Virus record (IMG/VR): IMGVR_UViG_3300033145_001324
Location: 6,059-70,058 of that record
Strand: one strand, 5' to 3'
Origin: a virus
Length of the DNA: 64,000 nt
Shown in pieces: positions 3,720 to 58,726 of this stretch (its first letter is position 1; the number at the start of each line of letters is the position of its first letter). A program made the translations under genes and the position numbers. The notes under the pieces are model-generated. The model was not told where the DNA came from and ran no database searches. It was given only the letters and a program-made list of their open reading frames with translations.

Positions 3720-4764
3720 TTTTGTGTTCTTTCGTTTTTACATTATGACAAGGTTTGCATAAAGTTTGTCCGTTGCTTACTTCCCAAAATGGTTTATATT
3801 TCTTAGCAAGTTTTACTAAACTTTTTTTATCGTCTATTGGCGAAAATTGGTCGTATAGTTTTAGAAAATCGTTATAAATATAAGAGAAAGATTCTTTATG
3901 ATGAGATTCTATTTTTTTACCTTTATAATTGCATTCTTGGCAGGTGAAAATATCTCGTTTAAAAACTTCAAATCTCCATTGTTTGTATTCAGGTAAATGT
4001 CTAATCACCTCATATAAAGAACTGATTCCCCCTTGCCAATTCCAATGGTTTTTTCCTTTACTAAAAACGTGCCAGCAGTTTTTGCATCGTTTAGCGAGCG
4101 ATGGCGGTATTTGTTTTCCGCAATCTATACAATTATTTTTGTTTGCGTATTTACCGTGTTTAATCTTTGCACAAACAGAACATCTTTTTGCATAGCAGTT
4201 TGTTAATTCTTTATCACAATCTATACATTTATTATTAGGTTTTCGATTACGTTGATTTGCACAAAAAACACATCTTCCTTTACCATAAAAAGCGGTTGTA
4301 TAATGTATTTCTTCCCCACAAACTTTACAATAATATTTTTTATGTCTTTTTTTAATTTCTTCTTTATGAGTTTGGTAATAAATTTTAGCGTTTTCTGCTT
4401 TATGTTGTTTATTCAACTCCGCCCATTTTTTGCTTCTTAATTTTATTTCTTCTCTGTGAAGCAAATAATAAATTCTTTGTTGTTTTGTAACTTTCTCTTT
4501 AATCTTTTCTTTATTTGTTTCTAAGTAAATTATTCGTTCTTGTTTGCGAACCTGGCTGCAAAATTTTGCTTTTTTTCTACGTTCTTGTTTGTGGGAATCT
4601 CTGTATTTTCTGCTATAAATTGAAATCTTTTCTTTATGAAGGTGGCGGTATTCTTTTTGACAGGTTGTGCACCAATGCTGTAATCTATCTTGAGAGGAAT
4701 TGTCTTTACCAAATTTCGTAATCTGCTTATTTACCTTACATTTTGTGCAAATCTTCGTTACCAT
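3706..4764 (-). CDS. HNH homing endonuclease with multiple CxxC Zn-ribbons
   Basis: KICTKC N-terminus, repeated CIDC/CxxC units, WQGG..EYKQWR..VFKRD.FTCQEC..HH...NGQTLCKPCH. Confidence 0.85.
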   Translation of the reverse strand: MVTKICTKCKVNKQITKFGKDNSSQDRLQHWCTTCQKEYRHLHKEKISIYSRKYRDSHKQERRKKAKFCSQVRKQERIIYLETNKEKIKEKVTKQQRIYYLLHREEIKLRSKKWAELNKQHKAENAKIYYQTHKEEIKKRHKKYYCKVCGEEIHYTTAFYGKGRCVFCANQRNRKPNNKCIDCDKELTNCYAKRCSVCAKIKHGKYANKNNCIDCGKQIPPSLAKRCKNCWHVFSKGKNHWNWQGGISSLYEVIRHLPEYKQWRFEVFKRDIFTCQECNYKGKKIESHHKESFSYIYNDFLKLYDQFSPIDDKKSLVKLAKKYKPFWEVSNGQTLCKPCHNVKTKEHKNAKK

Positions 4765-13075: not shown

Positions 13076-13216
13076 ATGAAAAATAATAAATATGATATAA
13101 AAATATTGGATAAACTCTTTAAACTTTACGCTTTCCTATTACAAGGCAGGGCAGGAGCTTATTATTGGCATTATAGCTTAGAATATGAGAAGTTAAAATC
13201 AAAGGTATTAAAATGA
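13076..13216 (+). CDS. 46-aa hypothetical protein (paralog of 10269..10409)
   Basis: MKNNKYDIKILDKLFKLYAFLLQGRAGAYYWHYSLEYEKLKSKVLK. Confidence 0.7.
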   Translation: MKNNKYDIKILDKLFKLYAFLLQGRAGAYYWHYSLEYEKLKSKVLK

Positions 13217-13839
13217 ATGTATATAAATATTTTGATAATATAAATACTCAATCAAAAGCATATTGGTTAGGTTATTTTTATGCAGATGGTTGTATTTGTA
13301 ACCAATATACTGTATCACTGACTTCAAAAGACAAAAAAGCGGTTTTGGAATTTAGAGAAGATTTAAAAATTAAAAATAAAATTTTTATTGATAAAAGAAA
13401 AAAACAGTATTATTATACTTTGATTATAGGCAGTAAATATATGGTAACTATATTATTCAAAAAATATAAACTTGTAACTAATAAATACAATAAATTGATA
13501 TTGCCTAAATTACAAAAACGATTATATAGACATTTTATAAGAGGGTTTTTTGATGGAGATGGGTGCGTTCTATATGGGTCTAATAGAGTATCTTTTATTT
13601 TACAAAGTGCGTCTGTTACGTTCCTATTGCAAATACAAAAGATTATTGATAAATTTTTAAATAATGATAATAAACAAGCTAAACTACATAAAGACCGCAA
13701 TAGTTACAGATTAGTATATTGCAAGAAAAAACATATTCCTAAATTATATAAATATTTATATATCAATTCATATAGATATTTGAACAGAAAAAAAATTAAA
13801 TTTAGGGAAGCGATTAAAACTTATAATAAAAGGAGATAA
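13213..13839 (+). CDS. LAGLIDADG homing endonuclease
   Basis: KAYWLGYFYADG and RHFIRGFFDGDG motifs. Confidence 0.88.
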   Translation: MNVYKYFDNINTQSKAYWLGYFYADGCICNQYTVSLTSKDKKAVLEFREDLKIKNKIFIDKRKKQYYYTLIIGSKYMVTILFKKYKLVTNKYNKLILPKLQKRLYRHFIRGFFDGDGCVLYGSNRVSFILQSASVTFLLQIQKIIDKFLNNDNKQAKLHKDRNSYRLVYCKKKHIPKLYKYLYINSYRYLNRKKIKFREAIKTYNKRR

Positions 13840-19826: not shown

Positions 19827-20141
19827 ATGACTAAGAAAAAGTTAGGAAGATTTTTTGATGATATAGATTTAGGAAAAGAAGTTAAATTTACAGAAGAAGA
19901 ATTTGATATATTCGAAAACTTTGAATGGGCGATACTTTATGACAATGGATTAAAAAATATAAATGGAGGGTATTCAAGTCTTATTGTATATGATGAAGAA
20001 AACGATTATGATGATGAGGATAAAGAAATATCTTATCTTTTATGTGAAGCAGAATGTGGAACGCAGGATTGTGGAGGAGGTCATTCAAGTAACGATAAAT
20101 GGACTTTGAAATATGACAGAAGTAATAAAAAATTCATTTAA
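19827..20141 (+). CDS. Acidic hypothetical protein
   Basis: ORF track; AGGAGG RBS; D/E-rich. Confidence 0.65.
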   Translation: MTKKKLGRFFDDIDLGKEVKFTEEEFDIFENFEWAILYDNGLKNINGGYSSLIVYDEENDYDDEDKEISYLLCEAECGTQDCGGGHSSNDKWTLKYDRSNKKFI

Positions 20142-20301
20142 ACAAAGGAGAAATTGTTATGAACATTGAAGATATGACTAATGAACAACTTATAGATAAG
20201 GAAAAAGAAATATTTGAAAAATGGGCTTTCACAGGGAAAGTGTGTTTGGCGGAATATGCTGATGTTGTAAGAGAATTAACTCTTAGAGAGGAAGACCCAA
20301 A

Positions 20302-20643
20302 ATGAAAATCGGAGATAAAGTATGGATTAAAGATGGTAATCATAGAGTATATGAAAAAGGAAGCAATGCTCCTATATACAGAGAATATTTTGTTGAACGT
20401 TATATTATAGGAGAAACTACTCAAAGTTGGATATTGGGGTATTACGAAGACAGCTTGGTGAAACATGGAAGCAAATATAAAAAGAGAGCTGAATTAAAAT
20501 CAATTTATATATCTTTACAAGAAGTTAATGACGAATGTTGGAGAGATAAGAATTGCTATCGTATTGCGGAATTAGTAAAAAGATGTTACAATGTTAAAAT
20601 ATTAAAAGATATTGAAAATATGCTTGTTAAAAAGGATTATTAA
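20302..20643 (+). CDS. Beta-barrel hypothetical phage protein
   Basis: MKIGDKVWI.D.N.RVY...I.GET..SWI pattern. Confidence 0.6.
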   Translation: MKIGDKVWIKDGNHRVYEKGSNAPIYREYFVERYIIGETTQSWILGYYEDSLVKHGSKYKKRAELKSIYISLQEVNDECWRDKNCYRIAELVKRCYNVKILKDIENMLVKKDY

Positions 20644-20647
20644 ACTT

Positions 20648-21661
20648 ATGTATATCAAAAAGAAAAAATTAACTAAAAAATTCTTGCTCAATAATTATAT
20701 AAAAAAGAAGAAATCTACAACTGATATTGCCAAAATGACAAAAAGAGTGGCTTCTTCAATACATTATAATTTGGAAAAATTTGGTATAAAAAAGAGAACT
20801 CGGGAAGAAGGTATTAGATTGGTCGGAGGGAAAATCAGCAAAAAAATGAAAGGAAGAATATTTTCTAAACAACATCTAACAAGACATCAAAAAGCTATGG
20901 AACAATTTAGAAAAACGGAATGGCAAGCAATTAAAGATGGCTCTATATATCAATGGAAAAAATGGAAAACTTTTAAAGAAAAAATAATGAAACAGGATAA
21001 CTATAAATGTGTAGTATGTGGCAAAAAAGCTAACACCATTCATCATAAAAAGAAGAAAGAAAAGTTTCCTGAATTATGTTGGAGAAGAAGAAATGTAATA
21101 AGTGTTTGTCAATCTTGTCATACGAAAATAGATAATCCTAATTCTCCTAAAAACAATACTCAAATAAGAATGATAAGAAGCTTAAAAGCTAAAGAACTAC
21201 AACTAAAAAAACAAATAACATATTATAAATCTAAAAGTCTAATTGATGATTTAACTAAAATTTACAATTACAGAAAATTGCATAGAGATATTAAGAAATA
21301 TAAAGCAAAACAAAAAAGATATAGCATTAATTACTTGATTGTATTAATAGATATAGACCATTTTAAAAAATTTAATGATAAATTTGGTCATAAATTTGGA
21401 GATAAGATTTTAATAAAAACTGCTAAAATATTAAAAAATTCAATCAGACAAGGTGATAATGTATATAGAGAATATAGAGGAGATGAATTTGTTTTGATAT
21501 TAAGCCATTCAAAAAAAGAAGATATACATATTTTAAATAGAATTAGAAAAGAATTAAAAAAGCACGATATAAAAATAAGTATAGGATATAATGAATTATG
21601 TGAAAATGTTTTAGAAATTGCAGACAAAAAAATGTATAACGAGAAGAGGAGGAAGAAATGA
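20648..21661 (+). CDS. HTH/NUMOD-HNH endonuclease fused to GGDEF (diguanylate cyclase-like) domain
   Basis: DNYKCVVCG...HH...NVISVCQSCH; then DDLTKIYN, IDIDHFKKFNDKFGHKFGDKIL, RGDEF, ISIG, ADKKMY. Confidence 0.85.
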   Translation: MYIKKKKLTKKFLLNNYIKKKKSTTDIAKMTKRVASSIHYNLEKFGIKKRTREEGIRLVGGKISKKMKGRIFSKQHLTRHQKAMEQFRKTEWQAIKDGSIYQWKKWKTFKEKIMKQDNYKCVVCGKKANTIHHKKKKEKFPELCWRRRNVISVCQSCHTKIDNPNSPKNNTQIRMIRSLKAKELQLKKQITYYKSKSLIDDLTKIYNYRKLHRDIKKYKAKQKRYSINYLIVLIDIDHFKKFNDKFGHKFGDKILIKTAKILKNSIRQGDNVYREYRGDEFVLILSHSKKEDIHILNRIRKELKKHDIKISIGYNELCENVLEIADKKMYNEKRRKK

Positions 21662-22292
21662 GCAAGGATACTGCGAGGAATTTAAGAGTAATAGAAACAG
21701 ATGAGAATAGATTTATAATATACAATTCACAAGATGAATATGTTTGCGGTGTTAAAGATAACGAAGCCAACGCTAAACGCATAGTGCATTGTGTTAATAA
21801 TTTTGATGAGTTGGTAAACTTGTTAAAAGACATATTAGAATGGGATGGGATTTTACCTCATAGTAAAGTAAGAATAAAACAAGCCATTAAAAATGCAGAG
21901 GTGAAATGATGGATAAATATAAAAAATATCCTGTCCCTAAAAAAGCAAAGGCGGAAAATCAAATATTATATATAATTGCTGGACTTGAGAAGCAAAAACA
22001 AGAACTTTTAGAGACTTGTAAATGGGCTTTAGAATATATTAGAAATAATAGCGTTGGGTGCTTAACAAGATATAATATAGAAGATAAACTTGAACAGGCT
22101 CTTAAAAATGCGGATATAAATTATGAAAGCTTATGAAGCTAGGGAAAAGATTTTGAAAATAGATAAGTGTCCAAAGTGTAATTGTAATGTTGCTGATGAT
22201 TGGGAATATGTCGATTTTAGTAATAAAAATGTAATAGAGTGCCCGCAATGTAACGAACACTTTTTCTTAGAAAAGTAAAAAGCAGAAATTAA

Positions 22293-22451
22293 ATGATTAT
22301 ATTTTGGATAGTTATATGTTACATATCAAGCACTGTAATTTGGGCGTTTATTTTAGCTCAAATAAAATTACAGAATGGAAACTCTCCTATATGGGGAATA
22401 ATAGCTTTTAATTTATTGTGGATAGCGGGTTTGTTGTTAACAAAAATATAA
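22293..22451 (+). CDS. Small two-TM membrane protein (52 aa)
   Basis: Manual translation MIIFWIVICYISSTVIWAFILAQIKLQNGNSPIWGIIAFNLLWIAGLLLTKI. Confidence 0.55.
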   Translation: MIIFWIVICYISSTVIWAFILAQIKLQNGNSPIWGIIAFNLLWIAGLLLTKI

Positions 22452-22461
22452 AGGATAAACT

Positions 22462-23571
22462 ATGTTTTTAATTGTATGGTTATTTATATTTATAGGAATT
22501 CCTACTGCAATTGTATTGGGAATAATTAAAACTTTTAAATTCGTTACTGCTCCTTTATGTAATGAGGAAATAGATATAGAAGAACTTGAAGAAGGAGAAG
22601 AAGGTAAAGATGAGGCTTTAAAGGTTATTATTAAAGATAACAATATAGATACTTCTCGTATAGTAGAATATAATGGAGAGGAAGTAGCGAGCTTTGAGTT
22701 TCGTCCTCAAACGTGGAAACAGTTCATAGCTCAAGATGAAGCAAAGGAAAGAGTTAAAACTATAATCAAAAAAGCAGAGCGTGGAATACGTAGCCATCTT
22801 ATTTTATCAGCAATTAAAGGTCATGGCAAAACTACTTTTATAGAATTATTGGCAAAAGATATGGACGCTCATTTAATCAAGAGAATAGGAAAACAGATTG
22901 ATGAGGATAATCTTGTTGACATTATTAACGAAATTAATACAAGCGAAAGTAAGCACGTGATTTTCTTTATAGATGAAATAGATAGTATGGATTGGAAAGT
23001 TATTAAGGTATTAAATCCTATTATAGAGCAATTTGAAATTGATGGAAAAAGAATTAAACCTTTTACCTTTGCCTGTGCCACTATTAATAAACATATATTG
23101 GTAAAGCAAAATCCTGATACACTTGATAGAATTCCGCACCATATACAATTTAAAAGATATACTTCTGAAGATATTAGCAGAATAATTACACAGTATAAAA
23201 ATCAATTATATGGGGAGGAAATAATTTCAATAGATATATTAAATTCTATATCTAAAAATTGTAAATTTAACCCTCGAACAGCGATTGCGTTATTAGAAGA
23301 TTATGTAGTGGAAAAAAATATTCAAAAAGTATTAAGCAATTGTAACATTATCAAAAACGGATTAAACAGTATAGATGTAAGCATTTTGAAGGTCTTAAAC
23401 GAAAGCAAAAGAGCTATGGGAGCAAATGCACTTAGTATGAGGATTGGACTCGGTCAGAGCCAGTATATGAGCGAATACGAGCCATTTCTGGTGGAGTTTG
23501 GTTTTATAGCAAGGACTCCAAGCAGGGTGATTACAGAAAAAGGAACGAAATTTTTGGAGGAATTAAAATGA
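22462..23571 (+). CDS. ruvB: RuvB-like AAA+ ATPase with N-terminal transmembrane segment
   Basis: RPQTWKQFIAQ, GHGKTT, FFIDEID, FTFACAT, LDR, NPRTA, EPFLVEFGFIARTP; hydrophobic first ~22 aa. Confidence 0.8.
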   Translation: MFLIVWLFIFIGIPTAIVLGIIKTFKFVTAPLCNEEIDIEELEEGEEGKDEALKVIIKDNNIDTSRIVEYNGEEVASFEFRPQTWKQFIAQDEAKERVKTIIKKAERGIRSHLILSAIKGHGKTTFIELLAKDMDAHLIKRIGKQIDEDNLVDIINEINTSESKHVIFFIDEIDSMDWKVIKVLNPIIEQFEIDGKRIKPFTFACATINKHILVKQNPDTLDRIPHHIQFKRYTSEDISRIITQYKNQLYGEEIISIDILNSISKNCKFNPRTAIALLEDYVVEKNIQKVLSNCNIIKNGLNSIDVSILKVLNESKRAMGANALSMRIGLGQSQYMSEYEPFLVEFGFIARTPSRVITEKGTKFLEELK

Positions 23572-23776
23572 AAATAAAAGGAAAGATTATAAAAACACCT
23601 GTTGGGGAATATCAATCACCGCTTAATCCACATTTCAAAGAAATATTATCAAATTGTAACACCGTAGAAGACTTATTTAATATCGTAGAATATCAAGGAT
23701 TTATAGACCCTGACGCTTTTAATGAACTTATAGTAAGGGGATTATGTTCACAATATAAAGAATGGAAAAATAAAAA

Positions 23777-24250
23777 ATGAAAAAGAAAATTCCTTTAAAA
23801 TTTAATAATTACAGTAAAGCTGATAAAATAACTATTTCTAAAATAGGTAAGATAGTAAAAAAAGACTGCATACTTGACGCAAGTGTTGTCCAGTTATGCG
23901 ATTATTATTATGGTAAATATACTATTGAATTAACAAAAAAACAGAAACGAGCCATTTTACAATTAGCAGGAATTAAACATAAACAAAATAAAAAAGAGGC
24001 TGGAGAATGGGCAAAATGTGGAATATTTTATTTAGCTTATGAACAATTAACAAGAAAAAACAAAGCAAAAAAATTAGTAAAAAACAGCGAGAATTGGCAT
24101 TATGAAGGAGATATAAATAAGGTAATGGAATGTGCAGGGGAAATAGTTGCAAATGCGTTTGAGAAAGATAGAGAAGAAAATCAAATAATAAACCATTTAC
24201 GAAATTATTGTAAGGAGATATTAGATGGCTATAATAGACTTATTGATTAA
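23777..24250 (+). CDS. Hypothetical protein
   Basis: ORF track; overlapping stop/start operon structure. Confidence 0.55.
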   Translation: MKKKIPLKFNNYSKADKITISKIGKIVKKDCILDASVVQLCDYYYGKYTIELTKKQKRAILQLAGIKHKQNKKEAGEWAKCGIFYLAYEQLTRKNKAKKLVKNSENWHYEGDINKVMECAGEIVANAFEKDREENQIINHLRNYCKEILDGYNRLID

Positions 24251-25043
24251 ATTTAAAGAGAGTTTAATATTAGATGGGCTTGCGAAAAAAACAATCAGAG
24301 CCTATATATCTTGTATTAATACTCTATCAAATAATATAAATTTTGATGAGATAAATCAAGAAAAAGTTAATCAATTCTTTCTTAATTTAGAAGCTCCTGA
24401 TAATACTGTTAATCAATATAAAAAGGCTCTTATTAAATGGATAAAAGTTTTTGAATTAGATATACATGTTCCTAAGTTTAAACAAGCAGAGCATAAAATA
24501 CCTGAATATTTTAACGAAGATTATTTTCTTGATGACATTATACCTGCAATAGATATATTATTTCAGGACGAGATAAAAGTCAGATGTTTATTTTATTTAA
24601 TGTTTTATACTGGATTAAGAGTGGGAGAAATTGCCAGTTTAAAGAAAAAAGATTTTGATTTAAAAAATAAAAGAATAAACATTCAGAAAAGAAAAGCAAA
24701 AAATCCTATTGTAGTATTTTATCCTCAACAAATGTCAGACCTTATAGAATTACATTTTAACAATACTGCTGGAAATGAAGATGTATTTAATATTAAAGAG
24801 GAAGCTATTAGTTATTATTGTAAAGTATTAAGCGAGAATTTAAATACACATATTACTCCTCATACTTTCAGGCATAGTTTTAGCATTACTTATCTAAAAA
24901 AAGGCGGGAATTCTAAAAATTTACAAGGATTACTTGGACACAAATCAAGAGTTTCTACGTCTATATATGAACAGATGAGCGACGATGATAGGGAAAAGGA
25001 ATTTCGGAAAGTGATGAAAATCAAAAGAAAACCATTGGGGTGA
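24225..25043 (+). CDS. XerC/D-like tyrosine recombinase
   Basis: TGLRVGE, PHTFRHSF, LLGH and ST..Y catalytic motifs; no arm-binding N-terminal domain. Confidence 0.9.
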   Translation: MAIIDLLIKFKESLILDGLAKKTIRAYISCINTLSNNINFDEINQEKVNQFFLNLEAPDNTVNQYKKALIKWIKVFELDIHVPKFKQAEHKIPEYFNEDYFLDDIIPAIDILFQDEIKVRCLFYLMFYTGLRVGEIASLKKKDFDLKNKRINIQKRKAKNPIVVFYPQQMSDLIELHFNNTAGNEDVFNIKEEAISYYCKVLSENLNTHITPHTFRHSFSITYLKKGGNSKNLQGLLGHKSRVSTSIYEQMSDDDREKEFRKVMKIKRKPLG

Positions 25044-25957
25044 TAAACACAAAAAACGTAATACGAAAGTAGGTTTAATAAATATTATTGGTATACTTAT
25101 TTTAAATATATTTTAAACGAAAGGACATCAAATGCGTTGCCCAAAATGTAGACGTATGATGGAGAAAATAGATGACAGTTATTATCTTAGTCGGGGGGCT
25201 TATTTTTATAAATGTAAACATTGTAATTATATTACTGTTTTGATGGTGGATAATAATAAACCATTTGGACAAAATTACGAAATCCCTGCTGATGGCAATA
25301 AAGATTTAGAAGAATGGGTCTTAAAAAAGAAATATCTTATGATGGGTATATTAGAACATAAGAAAATTGTAAAAGAAATGCAAGAAAAATATGGATATGG
25401 TAAGCTTAAAAATGATGATAAATACAATTTATTAATAGATATATATTTATATAATAAAAAGATTGAAGAAAAACAGGAAAGAAAAAATAAAAGAATTGCT
25501 AAGAAAAAGAAAGGAAAAAAAGATGACAAAAGAAACTAAAAAAGAAATTACTCTCAAAGAGCAGATATTCAACCTATTAAAAACACATAAGAAAAGTGGA
25601 GAAGGATTTGGAGATTGTATAGGGTCTTTTTGGGATGATAAATCTATTATGGACTTGGCGGAAATACTTGCTGGTAAAATAGAGGAGGAATAAAATGAAT
25701 ATACAAGAATACAGACCTATGATTGTCATAAGTTTAATCTGTTTAAGTTATTATGCTTTTTGGGTAATTGTTTATAATATAACTGGTTTTTTAAAAGGGA
25801 AAATTAAGATGAAAATGAATTTAAAAAAAGCTATAAAACAAAACAATATATGGTGTAAAAAATGCGGAGTAGAAGCAAATAGTATACATCATAAAAAAAT
25901 GGCAAGATTTGTAAAGTATGTCCATTCAGAGTTAGAAATTGAAAAGGAGGAAATAAA

Positions 25958-26437
25958 ATGAATAAAATAGATAAAGCTCTTAATATAGTATATAATAATT
26001 TACCTTATAAGTATCATATTCCTTTTAAAATTTATAAAACTCCGAAAAAACTTTTACAAGCAGAAGCAAAGGAGGAAGGAAAAAGTTATCAAACGATATA
26101 TAAATTTTATACTCAATATTTTAATAACCCACCTATTAGCAAGTATATAAAAACTAAATATTATGAGCCTTCTGAAATAATAAAAACATCTATCAAAGAA
26201 AATAAATTAACTGCTTTAGATATATCAGGACTTGGGAGTTTTCCTATAAAATTAGTTGAGTCGCATTTATTAGAATTAAAAAAAATTGGTGATATTATTT
26301 TTATGTTGCTACATGAAATAGGTCATCAAGTTTTGGTAAGTGGATATAATTATGATGAAAGAGCTTGCGATTTATTTGCTATAAGATGGATAAAGAAATT
26401 CGTAAATAAAGGTGTAATTAAAAAATATTGGGAGTAA
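25958..26437 (+). CDS. HExxH metallopeptidase-like (IrrE/ImmA-like) protein
   Basis: LLHEIGH ... ERACDLFA. Confidence 0.55.
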   Translation: MNKIDKALNIVYNNLPYKYHIPFKIYKTPKKLLQAEAKEEGKSYQTIYKFYTQYFNNPPISKYIKTKYYEPSEIIKTSIKENKLTALDISGLGSFPIKLVESHLLELKKIGDIIFMLLHEIGHQVLVSGYNYDERACDLFAIRWIKKFVNKGVIKKYWE

Positions 26438-26442
26438 AAATA

Positions 26443-26817
26443 ATGTTGCTTTTAAACTATATAATTCCTAAGAAAAAAACTTTATCCAAAACTATTAGAA
26501 ATAGAGGATTTAATAATTGGAAATTTAAAGTTAAGAGAAAAGATAATTTTACTTGTCAATCATGTGGGAAAAGAAAAAGGATTGAAGCTCATCATATAAA
26601 AGGATTCGGAATAATATTTAAAGAATTTTTAAAGAAATATAAGCAATTTTCACCTAAAAAAGATAGAAACATTTTACTTTATTTAGCAAGAGAATATAAA
26701 CCTTTTTCAGACGTAAATAATGGTAAAACTTTATGCACGGATTGTCATGAAATAATAGAAGAACATAAAGAAGAAATGCTTCTGCCACGACAATTTAAAA
26801 AGGAGATGATGATATGA
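26443..26817 (+). CDS. HNH endonuclease (paralog of C-terminus of 3706..4764)
   Basis: DNFTCQSC..HH..QFSP..YKPF..NNGKTLCTDCH. Confidence 0.8.
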   Translation: MLLLNYIIPKKKTLSKTIRNRGFNNWKFKVKRKDNFTCQSCGKRKRIEAHHIKGFGIIFKEFLKKYKQFSPKKDRNILLYLAREYKPFSDVNNGKTLCTDCHEIIEEHKEEMLLPRQFKKEMMI

Positions 26818-27050
26818 AAAAAAACTTAAACAAAAATGTAGCGGATTTTAGATATATGGGAAGAAAATACGAAGTAGATTTATTACTTGATAGTATAAAA
26901 AATGGTTATGCTACTTATGATATATTTGATGTAACTTATGATAAGAGAGGTGAGTTAAGTGGAAATTTTACATTATATCAACAAGAAGAAAGCGGTTATA
27001 CTGCAAGTGAGATAATAAGAGAAGCTATAAAGGAGTTAAAACATAATTAA

Positions 27051-32580: not shown

Positions 32581-32790
32581 ATGAAAATTATTGGTAAGAA
32601 AATTCTTTTATCAGAAAAAGATAATCAAAATATTGAAAATTTCGATAAAGCTTTACGCAAATTTAAAAAGGCTATTCGTAATTTGGGTATATTGAAAGAA
32701 TTAAAAGACAGAAGAAGTTTCGAGAAGCCAAGTGTAAAGAAACGAAAGAAAAGATTAGAGAGTCAACGTAATAATAAGAGGAAGAAATGA
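32581..32790 (+). CDS. rpsU: Ribosomal protein bS21
   Basis: FDKALRKFKK...GILKELKDRRSFEKPSVKKRKK. Confidence 0.85.
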   Translation: MKIIGKKILLSEKDNQNIENFDKALRKFKKAIRNLGILKELKDRRSFEKPSVKKRKKRLESQRNNKRKK

Positions 32791-34637
32791 TAAACGAATC
32801 CGAAGGAAAAATAGTTGTTCTTGATTGGGCTGTATTTATGTATATGGCTATTTTCGGCACAAGACGACCTGGAAGCATGTCTTCAACTTATGTTGGGCTA
32901 AGTATGATTCTTTCTTGCCTACGAAAAATAGGTATCGAGCCACAGGATACGGTTTATCTTGCAGTGGATTTTCTTAAAAGTTGGAGAAAACAATATGCTG
33001 AAGAATATAAAGCCGATAGAAAGGCAAAGTTGGACGCTCATACAGATATTAATTGGGATAAAGAATATAAAGCTTTTAATGAACTGTTAAATAACTTGAA
33101 CCGAGGCACGGATTGGATTGTCGTGAAAGGTGAGCATTGTTTGGCTGGTAATACTTTTATTAAAGTAAAAAACAGAGATAAATATATAAATCAACTTAAA
33201 ATTAATGATAAAGTGCTTACTTATAATTTTAAAAAGAAAATATTCGAATATAATAAAATTTTAAAAATTTATAGACATAAAACAAATGAATACTTGGAAT
33301 TGGAGTTTTTTCAAAACAAAACAAAATTAATTATAACTCCTGAACATAAAGTTTATACAAATAATGGTTGGCGTAAAGCAAAGAATTTAAAAATTAAAGA
33401 TGTTATATACACTTATCAAGATTATCAATTACTTTTAAACCAAAAAAATCAATTTATGTTAGGATATTTAACTGGATTAGTAGAAGGAGATGGCTGGATA
33501 CATAGACAAAAGCGAGCGTGTGCCATTTCTATGTGCGATTTAGAACCTGTTAAATATGCACAATTTATAATAAAAAAATTAACGGGTAAAGAATATAAAA
33601 TTGATGATAGAGAAGCTCGAAAAGTTCACTGGAAAAGAACAAAAACTATAACAATTTACAATAAAAGTTTTCTACAGCTACTTTCAGATTGTATGAAAAA
33701 CCATGGTTCAAATAAAGAGTTTATGAAAGGATTTTTGAGTGCATTTTATGATGCGGAAGGAGCATTAGGGAAAACAAAAGAATATGCTTACGGATTAATT
33801 CGTATATCTAATACAGACAAAAAGTTAATATTATATTGTCAAAAGATTTTAGATGTTTTTAAAATAGAGTATAAAGTTTATAAATTCAAAAATTACAATG
33901 GAAATAAAAGACATAAAGACATATATAGAATAGATATAAATAAACAAAAATATGTTAGGGAATTTTTTGAGAAATTTTATCCTCAAATAAAGAGGAAAAC
34001 CCCAGAAACTTTGAAAAATGGAATTCAAATCAGAAAAATCAATTTTATTAAAAATAATAATGAAATAAAAACTTATAATATAGAAACAAAAAATGAAAAT
34101 TATTTTGCTAATGGTATGCTGGTGCATAACTGCGAAGCAGACGACTTGGCATCACATATAGTCCGTCATAACAGAAATAAAGAGGTTGTTCTTGTCACTA
34201 TCGACGGAGATTGGCAACAAATGTGGCAATTCGGAGATAATGTAAAAATATTTTCTCCTAAAACAAAGCCCCGTCGATACAAAGTCAAGCCTAAAAATTA
34301 TAACTTCGCCCTTGAGCTTGCGAAGAAAATAAAATGTGAGAGGTCTGATAATTTAATTTCTGAGATTAAAACTGAGGAAGATTATGAAATTAGAAAGATG
34401 CTTGTTGACCTTACTACGCTTCCAATATTTATTGAAAAGCAAATAGATGATATTTTTGCTAATTTAAAAGAGAAAGAAAATATAGATATAAATTGTATTC
34501 CTTATGACAGTTTAAGAGAAAAGATAGAAACTTTATATAATGATAAAGAATATATTGTTACGTATAAATGGTCAGAGGCATTTGAAGAACGCAAAACTAA
34601 ACGAGTAGCAAATAAAAGAAAGAAGGTAAAAAAATGA
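32787..34637 (+). CDS. 5'-3' exonuclease (T5 D15/T4 RNase H-like) with intein
   Basis: VVLD, SWRK...YKADR, EADD, TIDGDWQQ. Confidence 0.85.
   Translation: MINESEGKIVVLDWAVFMYMAIFGTRRPGSMSSTYVGLSMILSCLRKIGIEPQDTVYLAVDFLKSWRKQYAEEYKADRKAKLDAHTDINWDKEYKAFNELLNNLNRGTDWIVVKGEHCLAGNTFIKVKNRDKYINQLKINDKVLTYNFKKKIFEYNKILKIYRHKTNEYLELEFFQNKTKLIITPEHKVYTNNGWRKAKNLKIKDVIYTYQDYQLLLNQKNQFMLGYLTGLVEGDGWIHRQKRACAISMCDLEPVKYAQFIIKKLTGKEYKIDDREARKVHWKRTKTITIYNKSFLQLLSDCMKNHGSNKEFMKGFLSAFYDAEGALGKTKEYAYGLIRISNTDKKLILYCQKILDVFKIEYKVYKFKNYNGNKRHKDIYRIDINKQKYVREFFEKFYPQIKRKTPETLKNGIQIRKINFIKNNNEIKTYNIETKNENYFANGMLVHNCEADDLASHIVRHNRNKEVVLVTIDGDWQQMWQFGDNVKIFSPKTKPRRYKVKPKNYNFALELAKKIKCERSDNLISEIKTEEDYEIRKMLVDLTTLPIFIEKQIDDIFANLKEKENIDINCIPYDSLREKIETLYNDKEYIVTYKWSEAFEERKTKRVANKRKKVKK
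33138..34130 (+). mobile_element. Intein with LAGLIDADG endonuclease (331 aa)
   Basis: CLAGNT start, TPEH block B, LVEGDG and FYDAEG, NYFANGMLVHN|C end. Confidence 0.9.
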
Positions 34638-35287: not shown

Positions 35288-35908
35288 ATGGCTAAGAAAG
35301 CGAAAAAAGTTATTAAGGTAAAGAAAAATGTTAAATCTAATAAGAAAAGACTAAAAAAGAAATCACGTAAATTTATTTATAAACATGAGATAAAAATAGA
35401 CCAATTATTGCTTCATCATAGGCAAGTGTTTCTTTCTGGAACAATCGATACCGAATCTGCTCATAAAATAACTACAAGTTTAATAGGTTTGGATATGTAT
35501 GCAAGAGGTGAGCCCATTGTTCTTTGGATAAACTCACGGGGAGGCAGTGTGTATGACGGGTTTGCTATTATAGATTGTATCAACGGATTAATTTCTCCTG
35601 TAATGACTATTATAAACGGAGAAGCTTGTTCAATGGGAGGTATAATTTCTATTTTTGGCAAAGAACGGTATATGACAAAAAATGCTGTGTGGATGGCTCA
35701 TGATTTAACATCAGGAGCTTATGATTATATTTCCAAAGCCAAATACAGAATACAAAATGGCTTAAAATTACAATCAAAAGTAATGCAAATGTTTAGAGAT
35801 AAAACTAAATTAACGGAAGATGATTTGGAGCAAGTTCGTCATGGAGAATTATGGTTGGATGCCACTGAGTGTAAGAAGAAAGGTATTGTTGACCATATAT
35901 TAACCTAA
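35288..35908 (+). CDS. clpP: ClpP-family protease with basic N-terminal extension
   Basis: INSRGGSV.DG, GEACSMG (Ser), MAH (His), LWLDATECKKKGIVD. Confidence 0.85.
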   Translation: MAKKAKKVIKVKKNVKSNKKRLKKKSRKFIYKHEIKIDQLLLHHRQVFLSGTIDTESAHKITTSLIGLDMYARGEPIVLWINSRGGSVYDGFAIIDCINGLISPVMTIINGEACSMGGIISIFGKERYMTKNAVWMAHDLTSGAYDYISKAKYRIQNGLKLQSKVMQMFRDKTKLTEDDLEQVRHGELWLDATECKKKGIVDHILT

Positions 35909-35935
35909 TGGTTTACAACTGAGAGGAGTAGAAGT

Positions 35936-36835
35936 ATGAGGAAATATAAGATTGGAAGAATTTTATTAGCCTGTTTATTGATATGTAATATGATAGCGTT
36001 AGGTGGGATGTCTTATGTTGGATATTCTCAATCAGGGTTTATAGCTATGTTAGAAAATAAAATAGACATTCTTGCTCAACGCAATGAGGAGTTAATTTAT
36101 TCGTTGGAAAAAACTCTTTTAATAGTGATGGAAAGTGTAGTAGGTTTAGGCGATAAAGCATTTGACATAGAAAAAACAATTAATAAAATGCTTGAATATA
36201 GAAAATTATTAGAAAAATCTATAGAATCAAAAAAAGATATTGATTTGGATAATGTAAAGGGAATAAAGGAAGCCAATGTATTAATAAAAAATCTTACAAA
36301 AGGTTGTTTGGGTTCAGGAACGCATATAAAAATAAATGACGAAAGTTATGTGCTTACTTGTGCTCATTTGGTAGAAGGTGACCTAAAAGACAATCTTTTG
36401 GTTATAGTATCTGATAGAGGAACATGGTCTAAAGCTGAAATTGTTAAATACAATAAAACAAAAGATTTAATGCTGCTGAAAGTTCCTCAATTAAAAAATA
36501 ATTATTATCTTAAAATTTCAGATAAGGCTCCAAAAGTGGGAAGCGAAGTAATTGTTATAGGCAACCCTGCTGGAATAATTGATATGATTACTAATGGTAT
36601 AATTACACAAGTAAATTCTAAAGGATATTATCTTATTACAAATAAAATTTGGTTTGGTAATAGTGGATGTTCATTATTATATAAAGGCGAATTAGTAGGA
36701 GTTATAAGTCAAATTCTTGCCTTTTCTTCAGTAAATCCTTTCGGCAGAGTAGTTGCTCAAAATTATGGTAAAGTAGTTGGATTAGGAGAAATTAAAACTT
36801 TTTTAAAGGAGTCTAATTATGAGTCGACCGAATAG
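35936..36835 (+). CDS. Membrane-anchored trypsin-like serine protease
   Basis: N-terminal hydrophobic helix, coiled coil, LTCAH, DLMLL, GNSG triad motifs. Confidence 0.85.
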   Translation: MRKYKIGRILLACLLICNMIALGGMSYVGYSQSGFIAMLENKIDILAQRNEELIYSLEKTLLIVMESVVGLGDKAFDIEKTINKMLEYRKLLEKSIESKKDIDLDNVKGIKEANVLIKNLTKGCLGSGTHIKINDESYVLTCAHLVEGDLKDNLLVIVSDRGTWSKAEIVKYNKTKDLMLLKVPQLKNNYYLKISDKAPKVGSEVIVIGNPAGIIDMITNGIITQVNSKGYYLITNKIWFGNSGCSLLYKGELVGVISQILAFSSVNPFGRVVAQNYGKVVGLGEIKTFLKESNYESTE

Positions 36836-37535
36836 AGTAAATAATCAATTTTATCGCAAATTACGATTAAACAAAAGTTTGATGGAAGTAATAAGTCATT
36901 TTAGATATATTAAAAAATGTTTAATGGCGGAAAATGAAATAATGAAACATCAACAAAACAAGGATAGTAAAAATGATTAAACTGCCTAAATCAAAACATA
37001 AATATGGATATACCCGAAAAGAAATTCTTGATATTATTAGACCTTTAAAAATACATCATCAGACTTTTTGGAAGAAATTTGGAGTAAATACTTGTGCAAT
37101 ACATCCTGAAACAAAAGAATCTCTTATGTATGGTTGCGATATTGAATTAGCAATTAGATGTTGTTTACAAAAAAGAGATAAAACTGTATGGGAATGGGAT
37201 TAAAAATGAAGAAAAAAATAAAGCAAAAAAGAAAGAAAAAAAATAAGTCTAAACCATTTTCTGTTCCTATTAAAGAAGTATGGAGAACTTGAGATATACA
37301 TTAAATGAGGCAATAAAATGGGCGAAAAGACAAGAACCAATTATAGAATAAATATCTGTTTAAAAGAAGATTGTATTTCACGTCCTTTAAAATGCGACAA
37401 GTGCTTTGCTTATAATGAATATAAGAGTAAAAAGTATTGCACTTGTAAAGGATTAATAACTCATTCAGGTGGATTTGTTTTAGCGACTCAAAAAGAATTG
37501 ATAATATGTAATAACTGTGGAAAAGAGATGAAGAT

Positions 37536-37973
37536 ATGAAAAGAAAAATTATAACTAACCTCAAAGAACTTAGAAAACCCAGTGAAATTGTAACTGATTT
37601 CTCAGAAGTTCCTTCTATAATTGAAGACCTGGAGGATAGTCTGGACAGAACCAAAGGAATAGGACTTAGTGCTGTCCAAATAGGAATTTATAAGCAGGTA
37701 GGAATTATCAGAATCCCTAATAAAAAAATCGATTTAATTAATCCTGTCCTGATAGAAAAATATGATAAATTTCGAATGGAAAAAGAGGGTTGTTTGTCTC
37801 TTCCAGGGATAAGAATAAATACTTTACGTTATAAAGAAATTACTATAGAAAATAATGGTAAACAATATACGTTTGATATACAGCTTGATGGGATTCTCTG
37901 TATCGCAGTCCAGCATGAGATTCAGCATATGAGTGGAAGAGTTATATTAGATTCTAAGTGGAGGAAGAAATGA
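37536..37973 (+). CDS. def: Peptide deformylase
   Basis: GIGLSAVQIG, EGCLS, QHEIQH. Confidence 0.92.
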   Translation: MKRKIITNLKELRKPSEIVTDFSEVPSIIEDLEDSLDRTKGIGLSAVQIGIYKQVGIIRIPNKKIDLINPVLIEKYDKFRMEKEGCLSLPGIRINTLRYKEITIENNGKQYTFDIQLDGILCIAVQHEIQHMSGRVILDSKWRKK

Positions 37974-38656
37974 ATAATTTTATATGGATAATGATTTTAG
38001 AGTATTTATATTTTTGGTTTGTTATTATGCTATCAATTCTTATTCATGAATTAGGACATCTTCTTGTAGCTTTGTGGTGTAAAGTGCCAGTAGAAACTTT
38101 CTGTATAGGCTTTGGAAAACCTATTATATGGAAAAAGAAATGGAAAGGTATTACTTGGCAGATAACCCCCTGGTTGATTGGAGGATACACTTCTCTTTAC
38201 GGAGAAACTAATATAAAGAAGAAAAAAGGTTTCCTTGCTCAAAGATGGTCTAAAAAAGTTGCTATTCTTTTAGCTGGTGTAACAATGAATTTTATTTTAG
38301 CCTGTATATGTTATCTTATAATGTATCAAAATATTTGGACAGGGTTAAAAATAGATTTTGCTATAATGAGTGTATTTTTTACAAGAGATTTAACTATAAT
38401 ATACACTTTATTATTATCTAACAATTTTCATCCTTTCTTGATTCAAATAAGTTTAATAAATATTTTCTGTGTAATAACAAATATATTTCCCTTCCCTGCA
38501 TTGGATGGAGGACTTATTTGGTTAGCATGGTGTGAAAAATTATTTAAACGTAAAAAGGATTTCGAAAATTTTAGTAATAGAATAAATAAATGGGGTTTCT
38601 GGACTTTAATGTGGGGACAAATTGTTTTAATCGGTTATATAATGATAAGGAGATAA
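37970..38656 (+). CDS. Site-2 (M50, RseP-like, PDZ-less) intramembrane protease
   Basis: IHELGH, F.IGFG, GGY, AGV.MN, NIFPFPALDGG. Confidence 0.88.
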   Translation: MNNFIWIMILEYLYFWFVIMLSILIHELGHLLVALWCKVPVETFCIGFGKPIIWKKKWKGITWQITPWLIGGYTSLYGETNIKKKKGFLAQRWSKKVAILLAGVTMNFILACICYLIMYQNIWTGLKIDFAIMSVFFTRDLTIIYTLLLSNNFHPFLIQISLINIFCVITNIFPFPALDGGLIWLAWCEKLFKRKKDFENFSNRINKWGFWTLMWGQIVLIGYIMIRR

Positions 38657-38822
38657 ACAAAATGCGAAAAGATGCTAAGAATGCTCGTAGGACGAAATGT
38701 GCATATTCTAAATGCAATAAAGACCCTTTCCTTAAAAATATTGCGTATTATTATAAAGGAATATATTATTGCAATAAGAACCACAGAATAAAAGCTTGTA
38801 AAGAGGAAGGTAAATCTGTTTC

Positions 38823-39305
38823 ATGAAAAAAACATCTTTAGAATATTCATTAGAATATGAAAAATTGTTTATATATATGGTGGAAGTTCTTGAAAAAAAA
38901 CTTCATTTCAAGAAAGATACTTTTACTATAAAAAAGGATAACAGAATACGTGGTTTATGTATTGAGTTATATAATTATATAGATGGAAACAACGAAGATT
39001 GTTATATGATAACTTATAACAGTAAAAAGTTACTTAATAAGGTAGAAATGTTGATGGGAATACTTCATGAACTTGGTCATTGTCGAAAAAAACATTTAAC
39101 CATTAATCATGGATTATCCCTTGAAGAAATGGAATATCAAGCAGAAGAGTTCGCTTTAGATGCTATAAAAAAATATTATAGCAAATATTATAAGAAAGCT
39201 CTTAATTTATTAAATCGTTATATAGACGGACCTGATAATTTATATTCAAGAGCTTTTGGTAAATTATATAGAGAAAGAATAGAGGAATTAAATGCGAAAA
39301 AGTGA
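38823..39305 (+). CDS. HExxH metallopeptidase-like (IrrE/ImmA-like) protein
   Basis: LHELGH ... EYQAEEFA. Confidence 0.6.
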   Translation: MKKTSLEYSLEYEKLFIYMVEVLEKKLHFKKDTFTIKKDNRIRGLCIELYNYIDGNNEDCYMITYNSKKLLNKVEMLMGILHELGHCRKKHLTINHGLSLEEMEYQAEEFALDAIKKYYSKYYKKALNLLNRYIDGPDNLYSRAFGKLYRERIEELNAKK

Positions 39306-39933
39306 TAGGAAGAGATTGAACAGGATTAGGGATGAATTTGGTAGAGGGTTTGAATATCTTAGTCAAATAAAAAGAGGAGTTGTTATTTTTGGCTCTGCAA
39401 GAACTAAGAAAGACAGCCCACAATACAAATCTGCTTACGACTTATCTTATCAATTAGCCAAAAAGAAATTTTCTATTATTACTGGAGCAGGTAAAGGGCT
39501 TATGGAAGCTGCTAATAAAGGTGCGTATGATGCCAATGGAATTTCGGTTGGGTTAAATATTGAATTACCTAAATTTCAAGATAAGAATGATTATATTAAT
39601 CGTTATATTTGTTTCAAACATTTTTATACAAGAAAAGTTATGTTCGCTAAATATTCTTTTGCTTCTATTTCTTGTCCTGGTGGATATGGCACAGCAGATG
39701 AAATATTTGACCAATTAGCGATTTTACAAAACGGAAAAATTCCTCCAAGACCTTTTATATTATTTGGAACGAAATTTTATAAAGGATTGATAGACTGGCT
39801 TAAATATTTAAAAGAGGATAAAAAATTAAGCCAAAGAGATTTTGATTTGTTTAAAGTAACCGATAGTATTGATGAAGTTGTTAGTATTATAGAACGTGAA
39901 TATAATGGCAGGAAAAAGAGGTTTATGATATAA
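39292..39933 (+). CDS. LOG-family nucleotide monophosphate phosphoribohydrolase
   Basis: FGSAR, TGAG.GLMEAANKGA, FYTRKVMF, PGGYGTADE. Confidence 0.9.
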   Translation: MRKSDRKRLNRIRDEFGRGFEYLSQIKRGVVIFGSARTKKDSPQYKSAYDLSYQLAKKKFSIITGAGKGLMEAANKGAYDANGISVGLNIELPKFQDKNDYINRYICFKHFYTRKVMFAKYSFASISCPGGYGTADEIFDQLAILQNGKIPPRPFILFGTKFYKGLIDWLKYLKEDKKLSQRDFDLFKVTDSIDEVVSIIEREYNGRKKRFMI

Positions 39934-41144
39934 TGAAGAAAAAAATTCCTATTATAATAGCTTTAATCTGTATGGGGCAATATAGTGTGCAAGGTATCTC
40001 TTCTTTGCCAGGTCAGTGTATATATTATTTAACCCGTGAAGCTTGGGGATTATCGGCTACTATGTTAGGGTTGATAAGTTGGGTGGTCGGAATTGCTTGG
40101 AGTATTAAAATTATTTGGGGATTTTTTGTAGATAACGTTTCTATTAAAGGCAAAAGAACTACTTATTATTTAATAGGAAGTTATTTATTATTGCTATTAA
40201 GTTACGCATATATTGTTATCTTTGGTTTAAATTTAATAACTTTGATTATAACAGGAGTAATAATTAATACTTGTATAGCATTTGCAGATGTAACAGTAGA
40301 CCGAGAAATGGTTATTACTGAACAAAAATTGAAGTTAAAAGGTCGTTTACAGTCTCTACAATGGTCCAGTTTAGGCATAGCAGGGCTTGTAGTAGCACTA
40401 TTAGGAGCATATATAGCCAAATACCTACCAGAACACCTAAATTATAGAGTAGCTTATGCTTTGGCAGGGGTGATTCCTTTTGCTATGTTAATTTATATAT
40501 CTACTAAATTTAAAGAACGTAAATTAAGAATGACAAAAAAACATAACTTTTTAAAAATTTTTAAGACGAATATTATAAAAATAAAGAATAAACGTCTATT
40601 AATAGGGTTATTATTTGTAGCGTGTTTACAGTTTTGTCCTTCTTTTGGCACAGCATTAATGATTCGCTGTAGAGAAACCTTGGGCGTAGACAAATTATTC
40701 TTAGGTTATTTAGGTGCAATGGGAACTGTTTTAGGAGTAATAGGATATTTTATTTATTATAAATGGGCTTATAAATTTCCTATGAAAAAATTATTATATT
40801 TTATGGTATTGTTTTCGGCTATCACTAATTTATTTTATCTTTACTTACCTAATCAGTGGATATTGCTTCTTTATAATTTAGCGTTTGGAGCGTTTGGAGG
40901 TATTACATTTATGACCTTGTTAGCGTTCTTTGTTCGGATTATACCTAAAGGTAGCGAGGCTTTCTTTTATGCATTGGTTACATCAGTATCAAATTTTTGT
41001 GCAAGAGGTGGAAATTTTTTCGGAGGATTAATATTTGATAATTTTGGTTATTATGTTACTGTAATAGTTTCCACAGTAGCTACATTGTTTTGTTTATTAT
41101 TGATACCTTATTTGAAAATAGGAGACAATTTATGCAATTCGTAG
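39933..41144 (+). CDS. MFS transporter, BT1 (folate/biopterin)-like
   Basis: ~12 TM; W.IK..WG..VD...I.G.R..YY, A.ADV.VD...V, G.LQS..W, P.G.EA..YA...S..N. Confidence 0.75.
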   Translation: MKKKIPIIIALICMGQYSVQGISSLPGQCIYYLTREAWGLSATMLGLISWVVGIAWSIKIIWGFFVDNVSIKGKRTTYYLIGSYLLLLLSYAYIVIFGLNLITLIITGVIINTCIAFADVTVDREMVITEQKLKLKGRLQSLQWSSLGIAGLVVALLGAYIAKYLPEHLNYRVAYALAGVIPFAMLIYISTKFKERKLRMTKKHNFLKIFKTNIIKIKNKRLLIGLLFVACLQFCPSFGTALMIRCRETLGVDKLFLGYLGAMGTVLGVIGYFIYYKWAYKFPMKKLLYFMVLFSAITNLFYLYLPNQWILLLYNLAFGAFGGITFMTLLAFFVRIIPKGSEAFFYALVTSVSNFCARGGNFFGGLIFDNFGYYVTVIVSTVATLFCLLLIPYLKIGDNLCNS

Positions 41145-41359
41145 ATATACTTGGTTGGATAGGCAATATAGGTTTTATTCTTGGGTCTTTTCTTATAGCA
41201 AGAAAGAAAATATCTGGTTTTTACTATTTTGGATTGGCTAATGCTATATATGTTGTAATAGGTATATTATTAAAAACTTCGAGTCTATCAGTTATATCTG
41301 CTTATTTATTCGCAATGAACGTTTATGGAATTATTAACTGGAGGAGGAAAATAAAATGA
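41132..41359 (+). CDS. Three-TM PnuC-like (nicotinamide riboside transporter half) protein
   Basis: LIARKK..GF...AN..Y...NVYGIINW pattern; start reassigned to MQFVD. Confidence 0.55.
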   Translation: MQFVDILGWIGNIGFILGSFLIARKKISGFYYFGLANAIYVVIGILLKTSSLSVISAYLFAMNVYGIINWRRKIK

Positions 41360-41874: not shown

Positions 41875-42017
41875 TATGAGATATTTAATTTTTTGTGGAA
41901 TAATTATAGGAATTATAATAGAAGTTAAATTATTTTTGACGATTTTACCTTATGTTAGAAATAAAGGTATTGGCAACTTGTTTATGTATAACGAGTTATA
42001 ACAATAGAATTTATTTA

Positions 42018-42066
42018 AAATAAATCTATTATTTACTTGACTTAACACTTTACAGTATGATATAAT
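42018..42066 (+). promoter_or_regulatory. Class A promoter
   Basis: AAATCTATTATTTAC-TTGACT-18 bp-(TGA)TATAAT. Confidence 0.82.
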
Positions 42067-42086
42067 AAAAATAAAAGGATGATTTT

Positions 42087-43157: not shown

Positions 43158-43163
43158 AGGATA

Positions 43164-56476: not shown

Positions 56477-56522
56477 AAAATCGATTATTTACTTGCGTCA
56501 GATACTCTTTTTGTGCTATAAT
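56477..56522 (+). promoter_or_regulatory. Class A promoter
   Basis: AAATCGATTATTTAC-TTGCGT-18 bp-(TGC)TATAAT. Confidence 0.75.
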
Positions 56523-56552
56523 AAAGTTAAGATAAAAGAGGATATAAAATTT

Positions 56553-58719: not shown

Positions 58720-58726
58720 TAAAGAT

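Follow-up and report, generated by a model that had tools for sequence, protein, structure and literature searches.

The DNA considered here is a stretch of 64,000 nucleotides (nt), hereafter the window, comprising bases 6059-70058 of the 70,058-bp viral record IMGVR_UViG_3300033145_001324, whose completeness is put at 75% by CheckV; it belongs to an uncultured phage with a genome of about 100 kb. Our subject is a gene in this window for a RuvB-like AAA+ motor of 369 amino acids (aa) with a short presensor-1 loop, an N-terminal anchor and a C-terminal winged-helix head domain (22462-23571, +), together with the gene for an Xer-like tyrosine recombinase of 272 aa (24225-25043, +) that lies 0.65 kb downstream and proved to be its conserved partner. 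The motor was identified by Pfam, PDB sequence and NCBIfam comparisons and by Foldseek searches with an AlphaFold2 (AF2) model. Its gene starts 10 nt after a 52-aa open reading frame (ORF) with two hydrophobic segments (22293-22451, +). Between motor and recombinase stand a variable 70-aa ORF (23568-23780, +), with a homologue in one other locus only, and a helical protein of what we call the ORF157 family (23777-24250, +), the 3' end of which overlaps the recombinase start.

That the motor has RuvB motifs along its whole length had been proposed in a first-pass annotation, made by a model from the letters alone, and all the motifs it named are indeed present in a three-domain RuvB homologue. 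The protein matches the Pfam families RuvB_N (2.3e-14), AAA (1.9e-9) and RuvB_C (2.8e-12, over profile positions 1-72 of 72), and its residues 80-365 align to the solved Thermotoga maritima RuvB in a PDB sequence search (E 8.3e-21). With an AF2 model made from 42 homologues (mean predicted local distance difference test, pLDDT, 82.9), RuvB chains fill the Foldseek ranks to 45 (7pbl_A, E 1.7e-22; target-normalised template-modelling (TM) score 0.75-0.81). The motor further contains the RuvB motif FRPQTWKQFIAQ, Walker A (GHGKTT, residues 120-125; 22819-22836, +), Walker B (FFIDEID, residues 168-174; 22963-22983, +), sensor 1 (T207) with the arginine finger (LDR, R223), which together span 23071-23136 (+), and sensor 2 (FNPRT, including NPR; 23266-23280, +). 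Residues G120, G122, K123, D171, E172, T207, R223 and R272 are invariant in the 42 sequences. In the head domain, ARTPSR (residues 350-355; 23509-23526, +), with R351 and R355 invariant, aligns with RTPRGR of T. maritima RuvB. Head-domain arginines hold the DNA backbone in the RuvAB complex structure, as described in PMC9477746, where four of them are named; our comparison covers the ARTPSR/RTPRGR stretch.

The motor thus shares with canonical RuvB (TIGR00635 / NF000868; PDB 1in4, 7pbl, 8efv) the large and small ATPase domains, the winged-helix head, the Walker motifs, both sensors and the arginine finger, and in part the head-domain arginine motif, at 26-29% identity over about 300 aligned positions. 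It differs in its presensor-1 hairpin (12 residues, not about 24), in an N-terminus longer by some 60 residues, which comprise the anchor, the acidic linker and a conserved motif, in that no RuvA is encoded alongside it, and in that its gene is linked not with ruvA or ruvC but with a tyrosine recombinase. Since its NCBIfam scores fall under the equivalog cut-offs (NF000868, 122.1 bits against 282; TIGR00635, 105.2 against 299), we consider it a homologue of RuvB and not an orthologous RuvB.

The PHROG families that match the motor best, phrog_168 (6.5e-21) and phrog_5846 (1.6e-20), bear the label 'clamp loader of DNA polymerase'. That the motor loads a clamp for the family-B DNA polymerase of the phage is hardly credible. 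Its C-terminal part is a complete RuvB_C winged helix and not a clamp-loader collar, and replication factor C (RFC) is the weaker match throughout: E 8.5e-5 in the PDB sequence search, and 22.8 bits in NCBIfam against 122 for RuvB. The first non-RuvB structure match, at rank 46, is a clamp loader (E 6e-11, with a query-normalised TM score of about 0.5). Among the families seen in a scan of 68 ORFs there is no sliding clamp. We rejected this identity on the RuvB_C terminus and the far weaker RFC matches.

Presensor-1 hairpin, RuvA and the N-terminal extension

RuvB is thought to need RuvA. In the RuvAB complex, as described in PMC9477746, domain III of RuvA contacts helix alpha-3 as well as the presensor-1 hairpin of RuvB, and thereby serves as nucleotide-exchange factor and ATPase activator. 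In the motor this hairpin, EQFEIDGKRIKP, is cut down to 12 residues (E189-P200; 23026-23061, +). Canonical-type RuvBs have 20-24 residues at this place, and the alignment makes the motor shorter by 12 than T. maritima RuvB, which has 24. The segment has the same length in all four aligned members of the close family, the family alignment shows a constant loop length, and in a second viral subfamily (P0132, alignment A5, 38% identical to the motor) the loops of the loci L093-L100 measure 9-14 residues. The hairpin had been described in the first-pass annotation as lacking; its shortening holds family-wide, but the AF2 model retains a stub of 2+2 residues, so that it is truncated rather than wholly absent.

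The annotation had also noted that the window contains no ruvA, and this extends to the whole record and beyond. At E <= 1, neither the record (75% complete) nor any of 15 related viral records has a hit to RuvA_N; the search was made with RuvA_N and not with RuvA_C, and the 15 include six with a completeness rating of at least 98%. As the loop is truncated throughout the family and RuvA_N is unmatched in 16 of 16 viral records, we regard the motor as independent of RuvA. The labels 'Holliday junction helicase RuvB' and 'clamp loader' carried by such proteins in records and family libraries imply RuvA dependence or clamp loading, and our evidence argues against both. A cellular parallel to this uncoupling from classical RuvA-dependent branch migration is offered by the Mycoplasma RuvB homologues, which, as far as described in PMC3364216, have helicase activity and no junction branch-migration activity. 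These differ from the motor in being cellular and in having RuvA homologues alongside, and a membrane anchor, a truncated hairpin or a recombinase partner is not reported for them.

In place of the lost loop residues the family carries a conserved N-terminal extension of about 25 residues gained relative to canonical RuvB. Its motif, LKVxIKDxxxDxSRIxEYxGE...FEFRP (22618-22707, +), is specific to the family, being absent from canonical RuvB, common to all members and found in both viral subfamilies; the consensus reads KVxIKxxxxDxSxIxEYxGEExKKFEFRP in the first (alignment A1) and IIIKxPxFNxxxIxxY...KKFIYRP in the second (A5).

Ahead of this motif lie a predicted single membrane anchor (22465-22542, +), made up of a hydrophobic helix (aa 2-22) with KTFKF (aa 23-27) after it, and an acidic, predicted disordered linker (aa 33-52; 22558-22617, +), much as first annotated. 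AF2 places a helix at residues 2-29 (pLDDT 83-92), with K23 and K26 after its hydrophobic part; residues 33-60 have a pLDDT below 50, and residues 30-60 hold 12 D/E against 3 K/R. By the positive-inside rule the topology would be N-out/C-in. The annotated ATG is preceded at 7 nt by the Shine-Dalgarno sequence AAGGA; apart from it, codons 1-90 offer a single in-frame start, the TTG of codon 19, which falls within the helix.

A hydrophobic N-terminal 17-mer (mean Kyte-Doolittle value of at least 1.9) is present in 87 of the 120 closest homologues, which are 54-100% identical to the motor; P0049 is a short gene call, the helix being present at its locus, L006. The hydrophobicity of the anchor is maintained while its sequence is not conserved, and anchors reappear in representatives at 35-45% identity (P0125, P0127, P0128, P0132-P0134, P0143, P0145, P0150 and P0156). 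On a tree of 128 cores (the 120 and 8 distant representatives, with the N-terminal regions left out and a midpoint root for drawing only), the trait changes at least 9 times, 5 of these changes being forced by well-supported branches, and in one clade 24 of the 26 members are without it. The anchor is therefore a selected but dispensable feature, accessory rather than part of the functional core, because about a quarter of the homologues, this clade included, do without it; homologues without the helix are what the annotation had itself named as counter-evidence to its membrane-anchored motor. Several anchorless homologues (P0031, P0047, P0048, P0053, P0058, P0081 and P0094; loci L009 and L060) begin with a short hydrophobic or amphipathic stretch, some of these with a cysteine (e.g., ...NWLCG... 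or ...FLSCIW...). One might speculate that such stretches bind the membrane.

The 52-aa ORF just upstream, which had been coupled to the motor as a small gene with two transmembrane helices, does exist and may be a real gene, but it lies outside the conserved module. It has no tblastn match in 89 related loci, it was its own sole match when 5.8 billion proteins of 28-91 aa were searched, and in L012, an 86%-identical relative, its place is taken by a soluble 92-aa ORF. We ruled it out as a partner on these grounds. In three relatives of 65-68% identity, a conserved one-helix micro-ORF of 30-31 aa stands just 5' of the motor (L015:188-283, L016:109-204 and L017:3859-3951); it shares no sequence kinship with the 52-aa ORF of the window.

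The joining of a membrane anchor to a double-stranded DNA (dsDNA) motor fold, in a gene placed among small upstream ORFs, may speak for the proposal of the first-pass annotation, an anchored pump that draws in what remains of the injected genome or drives out superinfecting DNA, perhaps with the two-helix protein. We consider this very unlikely: the putative small partner has no homologue and is missing from the 86%-identical relative; the anchorless clade retains the motor gene, and the anchorless loci L007 and L009 retain the recombinase as well; and the motor gene has no link to entry or exclusion functions. Such a pump would also leave the recombinase linkage and the fusion described below unexplained.

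Linkage to a tyrosine recombinase

The recombinase matches Phage_integrase (7.1e-23) and Phage_int_SAM_4 (3e-6) in Pfam, and both the SAM-like N-terminal domain and the catalytic set R-K-HxxR-H-Y (R132, K157, H213-x-x-R216, H239 and Y248) are present. Among 35 sequences K157 and Y248 are invariant, and R132, R216, H217 and H239 are conserved in at least 90%. Its best NCBIfam model is XerA_Arch (126.5 bits against a cut-off of 220), with XerD at 75.7 against 329.6, and no Xer equivalog cut-off is reached.

This gene, overlooked in the first-pass annotation, is the one nearly universal neighbour of the motor and gives the strongest signal in its genomic context. A tyrosine recombinase follows the motor on the same strand, at a distance of 2-1944 nt, in all 26 distinct loci whose downstream sequence extends to 2.5 kb or more (the window included, and identical motor genes counted once). 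For 23 loci with long flanks we also grouped all ORFs of 60 aa or more into families by clustering. A recombinase turns up in 21 of these loci, the remaining two having less than 0.5 kb of downstream sequence; GGDEF proteins are found in 10, every other real gene family in at most 6, and an antisense shadow ORF within the motor gene in 18. Because the other real families are far rarer, the linkage of motor and recombinase exceeds general collinearity. In each of two complete genomes there is exactly one tyrosine recombinase, and it is the neighbour of the motor.

The linkage also tracks the two structural peculiarities of the motor. Of 77 viral RuvB-like loci fetched, we compared the 75 that have a called ORF. 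Where a loop of at most 14 residues goes with an N-terminal extension of at least 40 residues, a recombinase lies 466-2330 nt downstream in 8 of 9 loci, a sample of the second subfamily in which L096 equals L097, and L094 and L100 are nearly identical. A short loop without the extension is accompanied by a recombinase in none of 4 loci, and loops of 17-29 residues in 4 of 62. The other viral RuvB-like proteins (ESM-Atlas clusters; IMG/VR loci L101-L169) mostly belong to this last kind: they have the same Pfam domains as the motor, and RuvA_N is unmatched in the three of their records checked (L103, L105 and L106), but they mostly have the 17-29-residue loop and no N-terminal extension.

In one predicted protein of 627 aa (P0135) the two functions appear to be fused. 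Its residues 8-294 align to the motor at 37% identity with a single gap and share the loop of 12 residues, and its residues 336-610 make up a complete tyrosine recombinase, with SAM-like and catalytic domains. Between the separate genes, a homologue of the ORF157 family is found in 19 loci, usually overlapping the recombinase start; it is weakly conserved. Its AF2 model (pLDDT 79.4) has no PDB match in Foldseek at E <= 0.001, the best being MarR-type regulators at E 0.2-1, and in a wide VIA-align search no Z exceeded 5.9, a value reached on generic helical segments. A complex prediction with the recombinase, ORF157 and motor residues 61-369, made without controls, scored 0.00 against a mark of 0.32 and counts neither way.

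Another common neighbour, second in frequency after the recombinase, is a stand-alone GGDEF protein of about 160 aa, which is encoded 5' of the motor in the 10 of 23 loci mentioned. In the window, a 349-aa protein with an HNH-endonuclease-like N-terminal half and a GGDEF domain, with the variant signature RGDEF, is encoded at 20612-21661 (+).

Possible roles of the motor

The shortened loop, the lack of RuvA, the gained extension and the genetic coupling to the recombinase lead us to suggest that the motor is the private motor of its neighbour: a RuvA-independent, membrane-tethered RuvB-type dsDNA motor serving an Xer-like recombinase, either in the manner of FtsK with Xer or with the recombinase replacing RuvA. 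We hold this reading tentatively, as quite possible though short of probable. By homology, the motor would form a hexameric AAA+ ring around dsDNA that pumps by ATP hydrolysis and grips the backbone with its winged-helix heads. The subunits of this phage's motor, like those of about three quarters of its relatives, would each be tied to the cytoplasmic face of the membrane by its N-terminal helix and a flexible acidic linker of about 30 residues. Two mechanisms are conceivable. As FtsK does with XerCD, the tethered ring may reel DNA in to a site bound by the recombinase, and then activate or direct strand exchange. Alternatively, a recombinase tetramer may hold a Holliday junction in the stead of RuvA, with RuvB-like rings on the arms pushing the junction onward and so making the exchange directional. 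Both possibly fit, and the evidence does not separate them.

A functional parallel is FtsK/SpoIIIE with XerCD-dif, in which a motor activates tyrosine recombination; FtsK has an N-terminal anchor, a flexible linker, a ring-type dsDNA translocase and a C-terminal winged helix. The domain order of our motor is analogous, and its coupling to an Xer-type recombinase is seen in gene linkage and in the one predicted fusion. However, it is an AAA+ protein of the RuvB clade rather than of the RecA-fold FtsK/HerA type, has one transmembrane helix instead of four, and is encoded by a virus; it has no Pfam match to FtsK_SpoIIIE at E <= 0.1. For recombinase activation or a KOPS-like guide sequence there is no evidence in the case of the motor. 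The resemblance is thus a functional likeness and not a membership.

With the exception of FtsK with XerCD, tyrosine recombinases are generally considered to need no energy source. If the private-motor reading is correct, these viruses would have a second, independently evolved way of powering or steering site-specific recombination, and a natural RuvB loaded by something other than RuvA, with the frequent membrane anchor as a testable parallel to FtsK. A stronger version, in which motor and recombinase form a self-contained, motor-driven machine for site-specific recombination, the recombinase making and holding the Holliday junction in the roles of both RuvA and RuvC, the N-terminal motif being a new dock, and the often tethered rings pumping the arms of the junction or reeling in the partner site, would make the pair a convergent AAA+ counterpart of FtsK-XerCD. 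This we regard as somewhat unlikely.

Several points weigh against the private-motor reading. Contact or joint action of motor and recombinase is presumed only, and because the 26 linked loci come from viruses of common ancestry, a part of their linkage may be inherited collinearity. The fusion is a single predicted protein on a single 9,080-nt contig. No recombination site was found, the short inverted repeats in 20000-27000 being AT-rich palindromes only, and no common element was seen in the 140 nt past the recombinase stop in 31 loci, which mostly run into the next gene. Since anchorless loci (L007 and L009) still have the recombinase, membrane tethering is not needed for the shared function; moreover, the anchor was called as a transmembrane segment from hydropathy and AF2 only. 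A ring with six tethers could hardly rotate with the DNA in the way that was reportedly proposed for RuvB motors in the cryo-EM study of RuvAB.

A further objection comes from the recombination genes that the phage carries elsewhere in the window: RuvC (46600-47211, 23 kb from the motor gene, as the first-pass annotation had stated), RecA (47218-48192), an endonuclease VII-like protein (51368-51967), another resolvase-type protein (56493-56822) and an Mre11/SbcC-like pair. Because of these genes a general branch-migration role is plausible. The motor would then serve homologous recombination, migrating Holliday junctions and forks that RecA makes in recombination-dependent replication, for cleavage of the junctions by RuvC or the endonuclease VII-like protein, with the recombinase as a neighbour by descent only. 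The retention of all RuvB catalytic motifs and of the head-domain arginines R351 and R355 fits this, and RecA is present in all five complete relatives; RuvC is found in three of the five and is missing at E <= 0.01 in the other two, which retain the motor nonetheless. Yet 18-23 kb separate the motor from the RecA/RuvC genes in the window and the five complete relatives, and the recombinase is always within 2 kb of it. Because RecA sits so far off, we regard the motor as linked to the recombinase rather than to the homologous-recombination genes. A homologous-recombination role would also leave unexplained the fusion and the way in which the linkage tracks the short loop and the extension. We judge it unlikely.

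The motor gene belongs to a block of small genes of early appearance, which lies upstream of the genes for Prim-Pol (44098-45972) and PolB (51954-55217). This may suggest instead a replication initiator, an origin remodeller or a membrane tether, which would bind and melt the origin or load a primase-helicase, the recombinase resolving multimers as it does in basic replicons of plasmids. The window has no further recognised candidate for an initiator, and a circularising Asgard archaeal mini-element of 2,644 bp, as described in PMC11529989, holds only ParG-like, hypothetical and 'RuvB' genes. Against this, the sequence and structure matches are all to RuvB, the only initiator match being Orc1/Cdc6 at E 4e-4 (19 bits, against 122 for RuvB), no initiator is among the structure matches listed, and the anchor is dispensable in a quarter of the members. 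ParB (ParB_N) is absent from all five complete relatives, so that there is no sign of a plasmid-like lifestyle, and the idea of a plasmid-prophage was set aside for the same reason. A role in initiation thus appears improbable. Replication tethering, like genome import and superinfection exclusion, had been put forward in the first-pass annotation, and we found no evidence in support of any of the three.

Distribution of the family and other genes of the viruses

The motor family is large, and all viruses from which it is known are uncultured, with genomes of about 90-104 kb. A word-indexed search with the motor recovered 311 proteins at E <= 1e-3, and an exhaustive search of representatives recovered 1,731 at the same threshold, with 63 passing E <= 1e-30; its ESM-Atlas neighbours fall into clusters with 67-100% viral members. 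The complete relatives measure 90-104 kb, two of them having direct terminal repeats and one being labelled a provirus. No close relative was found in cultured phages, where the best tblastn identity stays below 30%. Scans of viral contigs with the single motor sequence, and with P0132, P0125 and P0135, yielded nothing. A pattern-based scan of 185,579 species genomes, in which short-peptide patterns can miss members, gave one spurious match of 33 residues, and hence no integrated copy was found. Full-text searches of the literature gave no description of the motor family or of a RuvB-recombinase pairing.

In the relative labelled a provirus by IMG/VR (L008 / G004, 100,617 bp, complete), the recombinase lies about 33 kb from the end of the record, not at a prophage border. 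The only members with an organism label at NCBI (P0105 and P0291) come from metagenome-assembled genomes labelled as Asgard archaea (Thorarchaeota and Promethearchaeota). Signals of the host are mixed, as the recombinase is nearest to archaeal XerA, and RecA, RuvC, ClpP and peptide deformylase of the phage are of bacterial type.

Five RuvB-like relatives (626-706 aa) contain inteins with LAGLIDADG or HNH endonucleases, placed at the Walker-A P-loop in P0121, P0122, P0176 and P0186, and further downstream, near Walker B, in P0194. The window itself has an intein (splicing domain and LAGLIDADG) in a 616-aa ORF with a 5'-3' exonuclease N-terminal domain (32787-34637, +). Homing-endonuclease-type genes (LAGLIDADG, HNH and NUMOD3) are unusually numerous across its replication and early regions (2-538, -; 3706-4764, -; 13213-13839; 26428-26817; 45965-46639; 58703-59377; 61208-61861).

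Three of the recombination genes named above are distinct genes of the junction-resolvase type, namely RuvC, the endonuclease VII-like gene (phrog_1035) and the gene at 56493-56822, which matches phrog_2002, 'Holliday junction resolvase'. Finally, a run of host-like genes occupies 35288-43625 (+), with ClpP, a trypsin-like protease, peptide deformylase, an M50 site-2 protease, a LOG/lysine-decarboxylase-like protein, a BT1/MFS transporter, an M42 aminopeptidase and MgtC.

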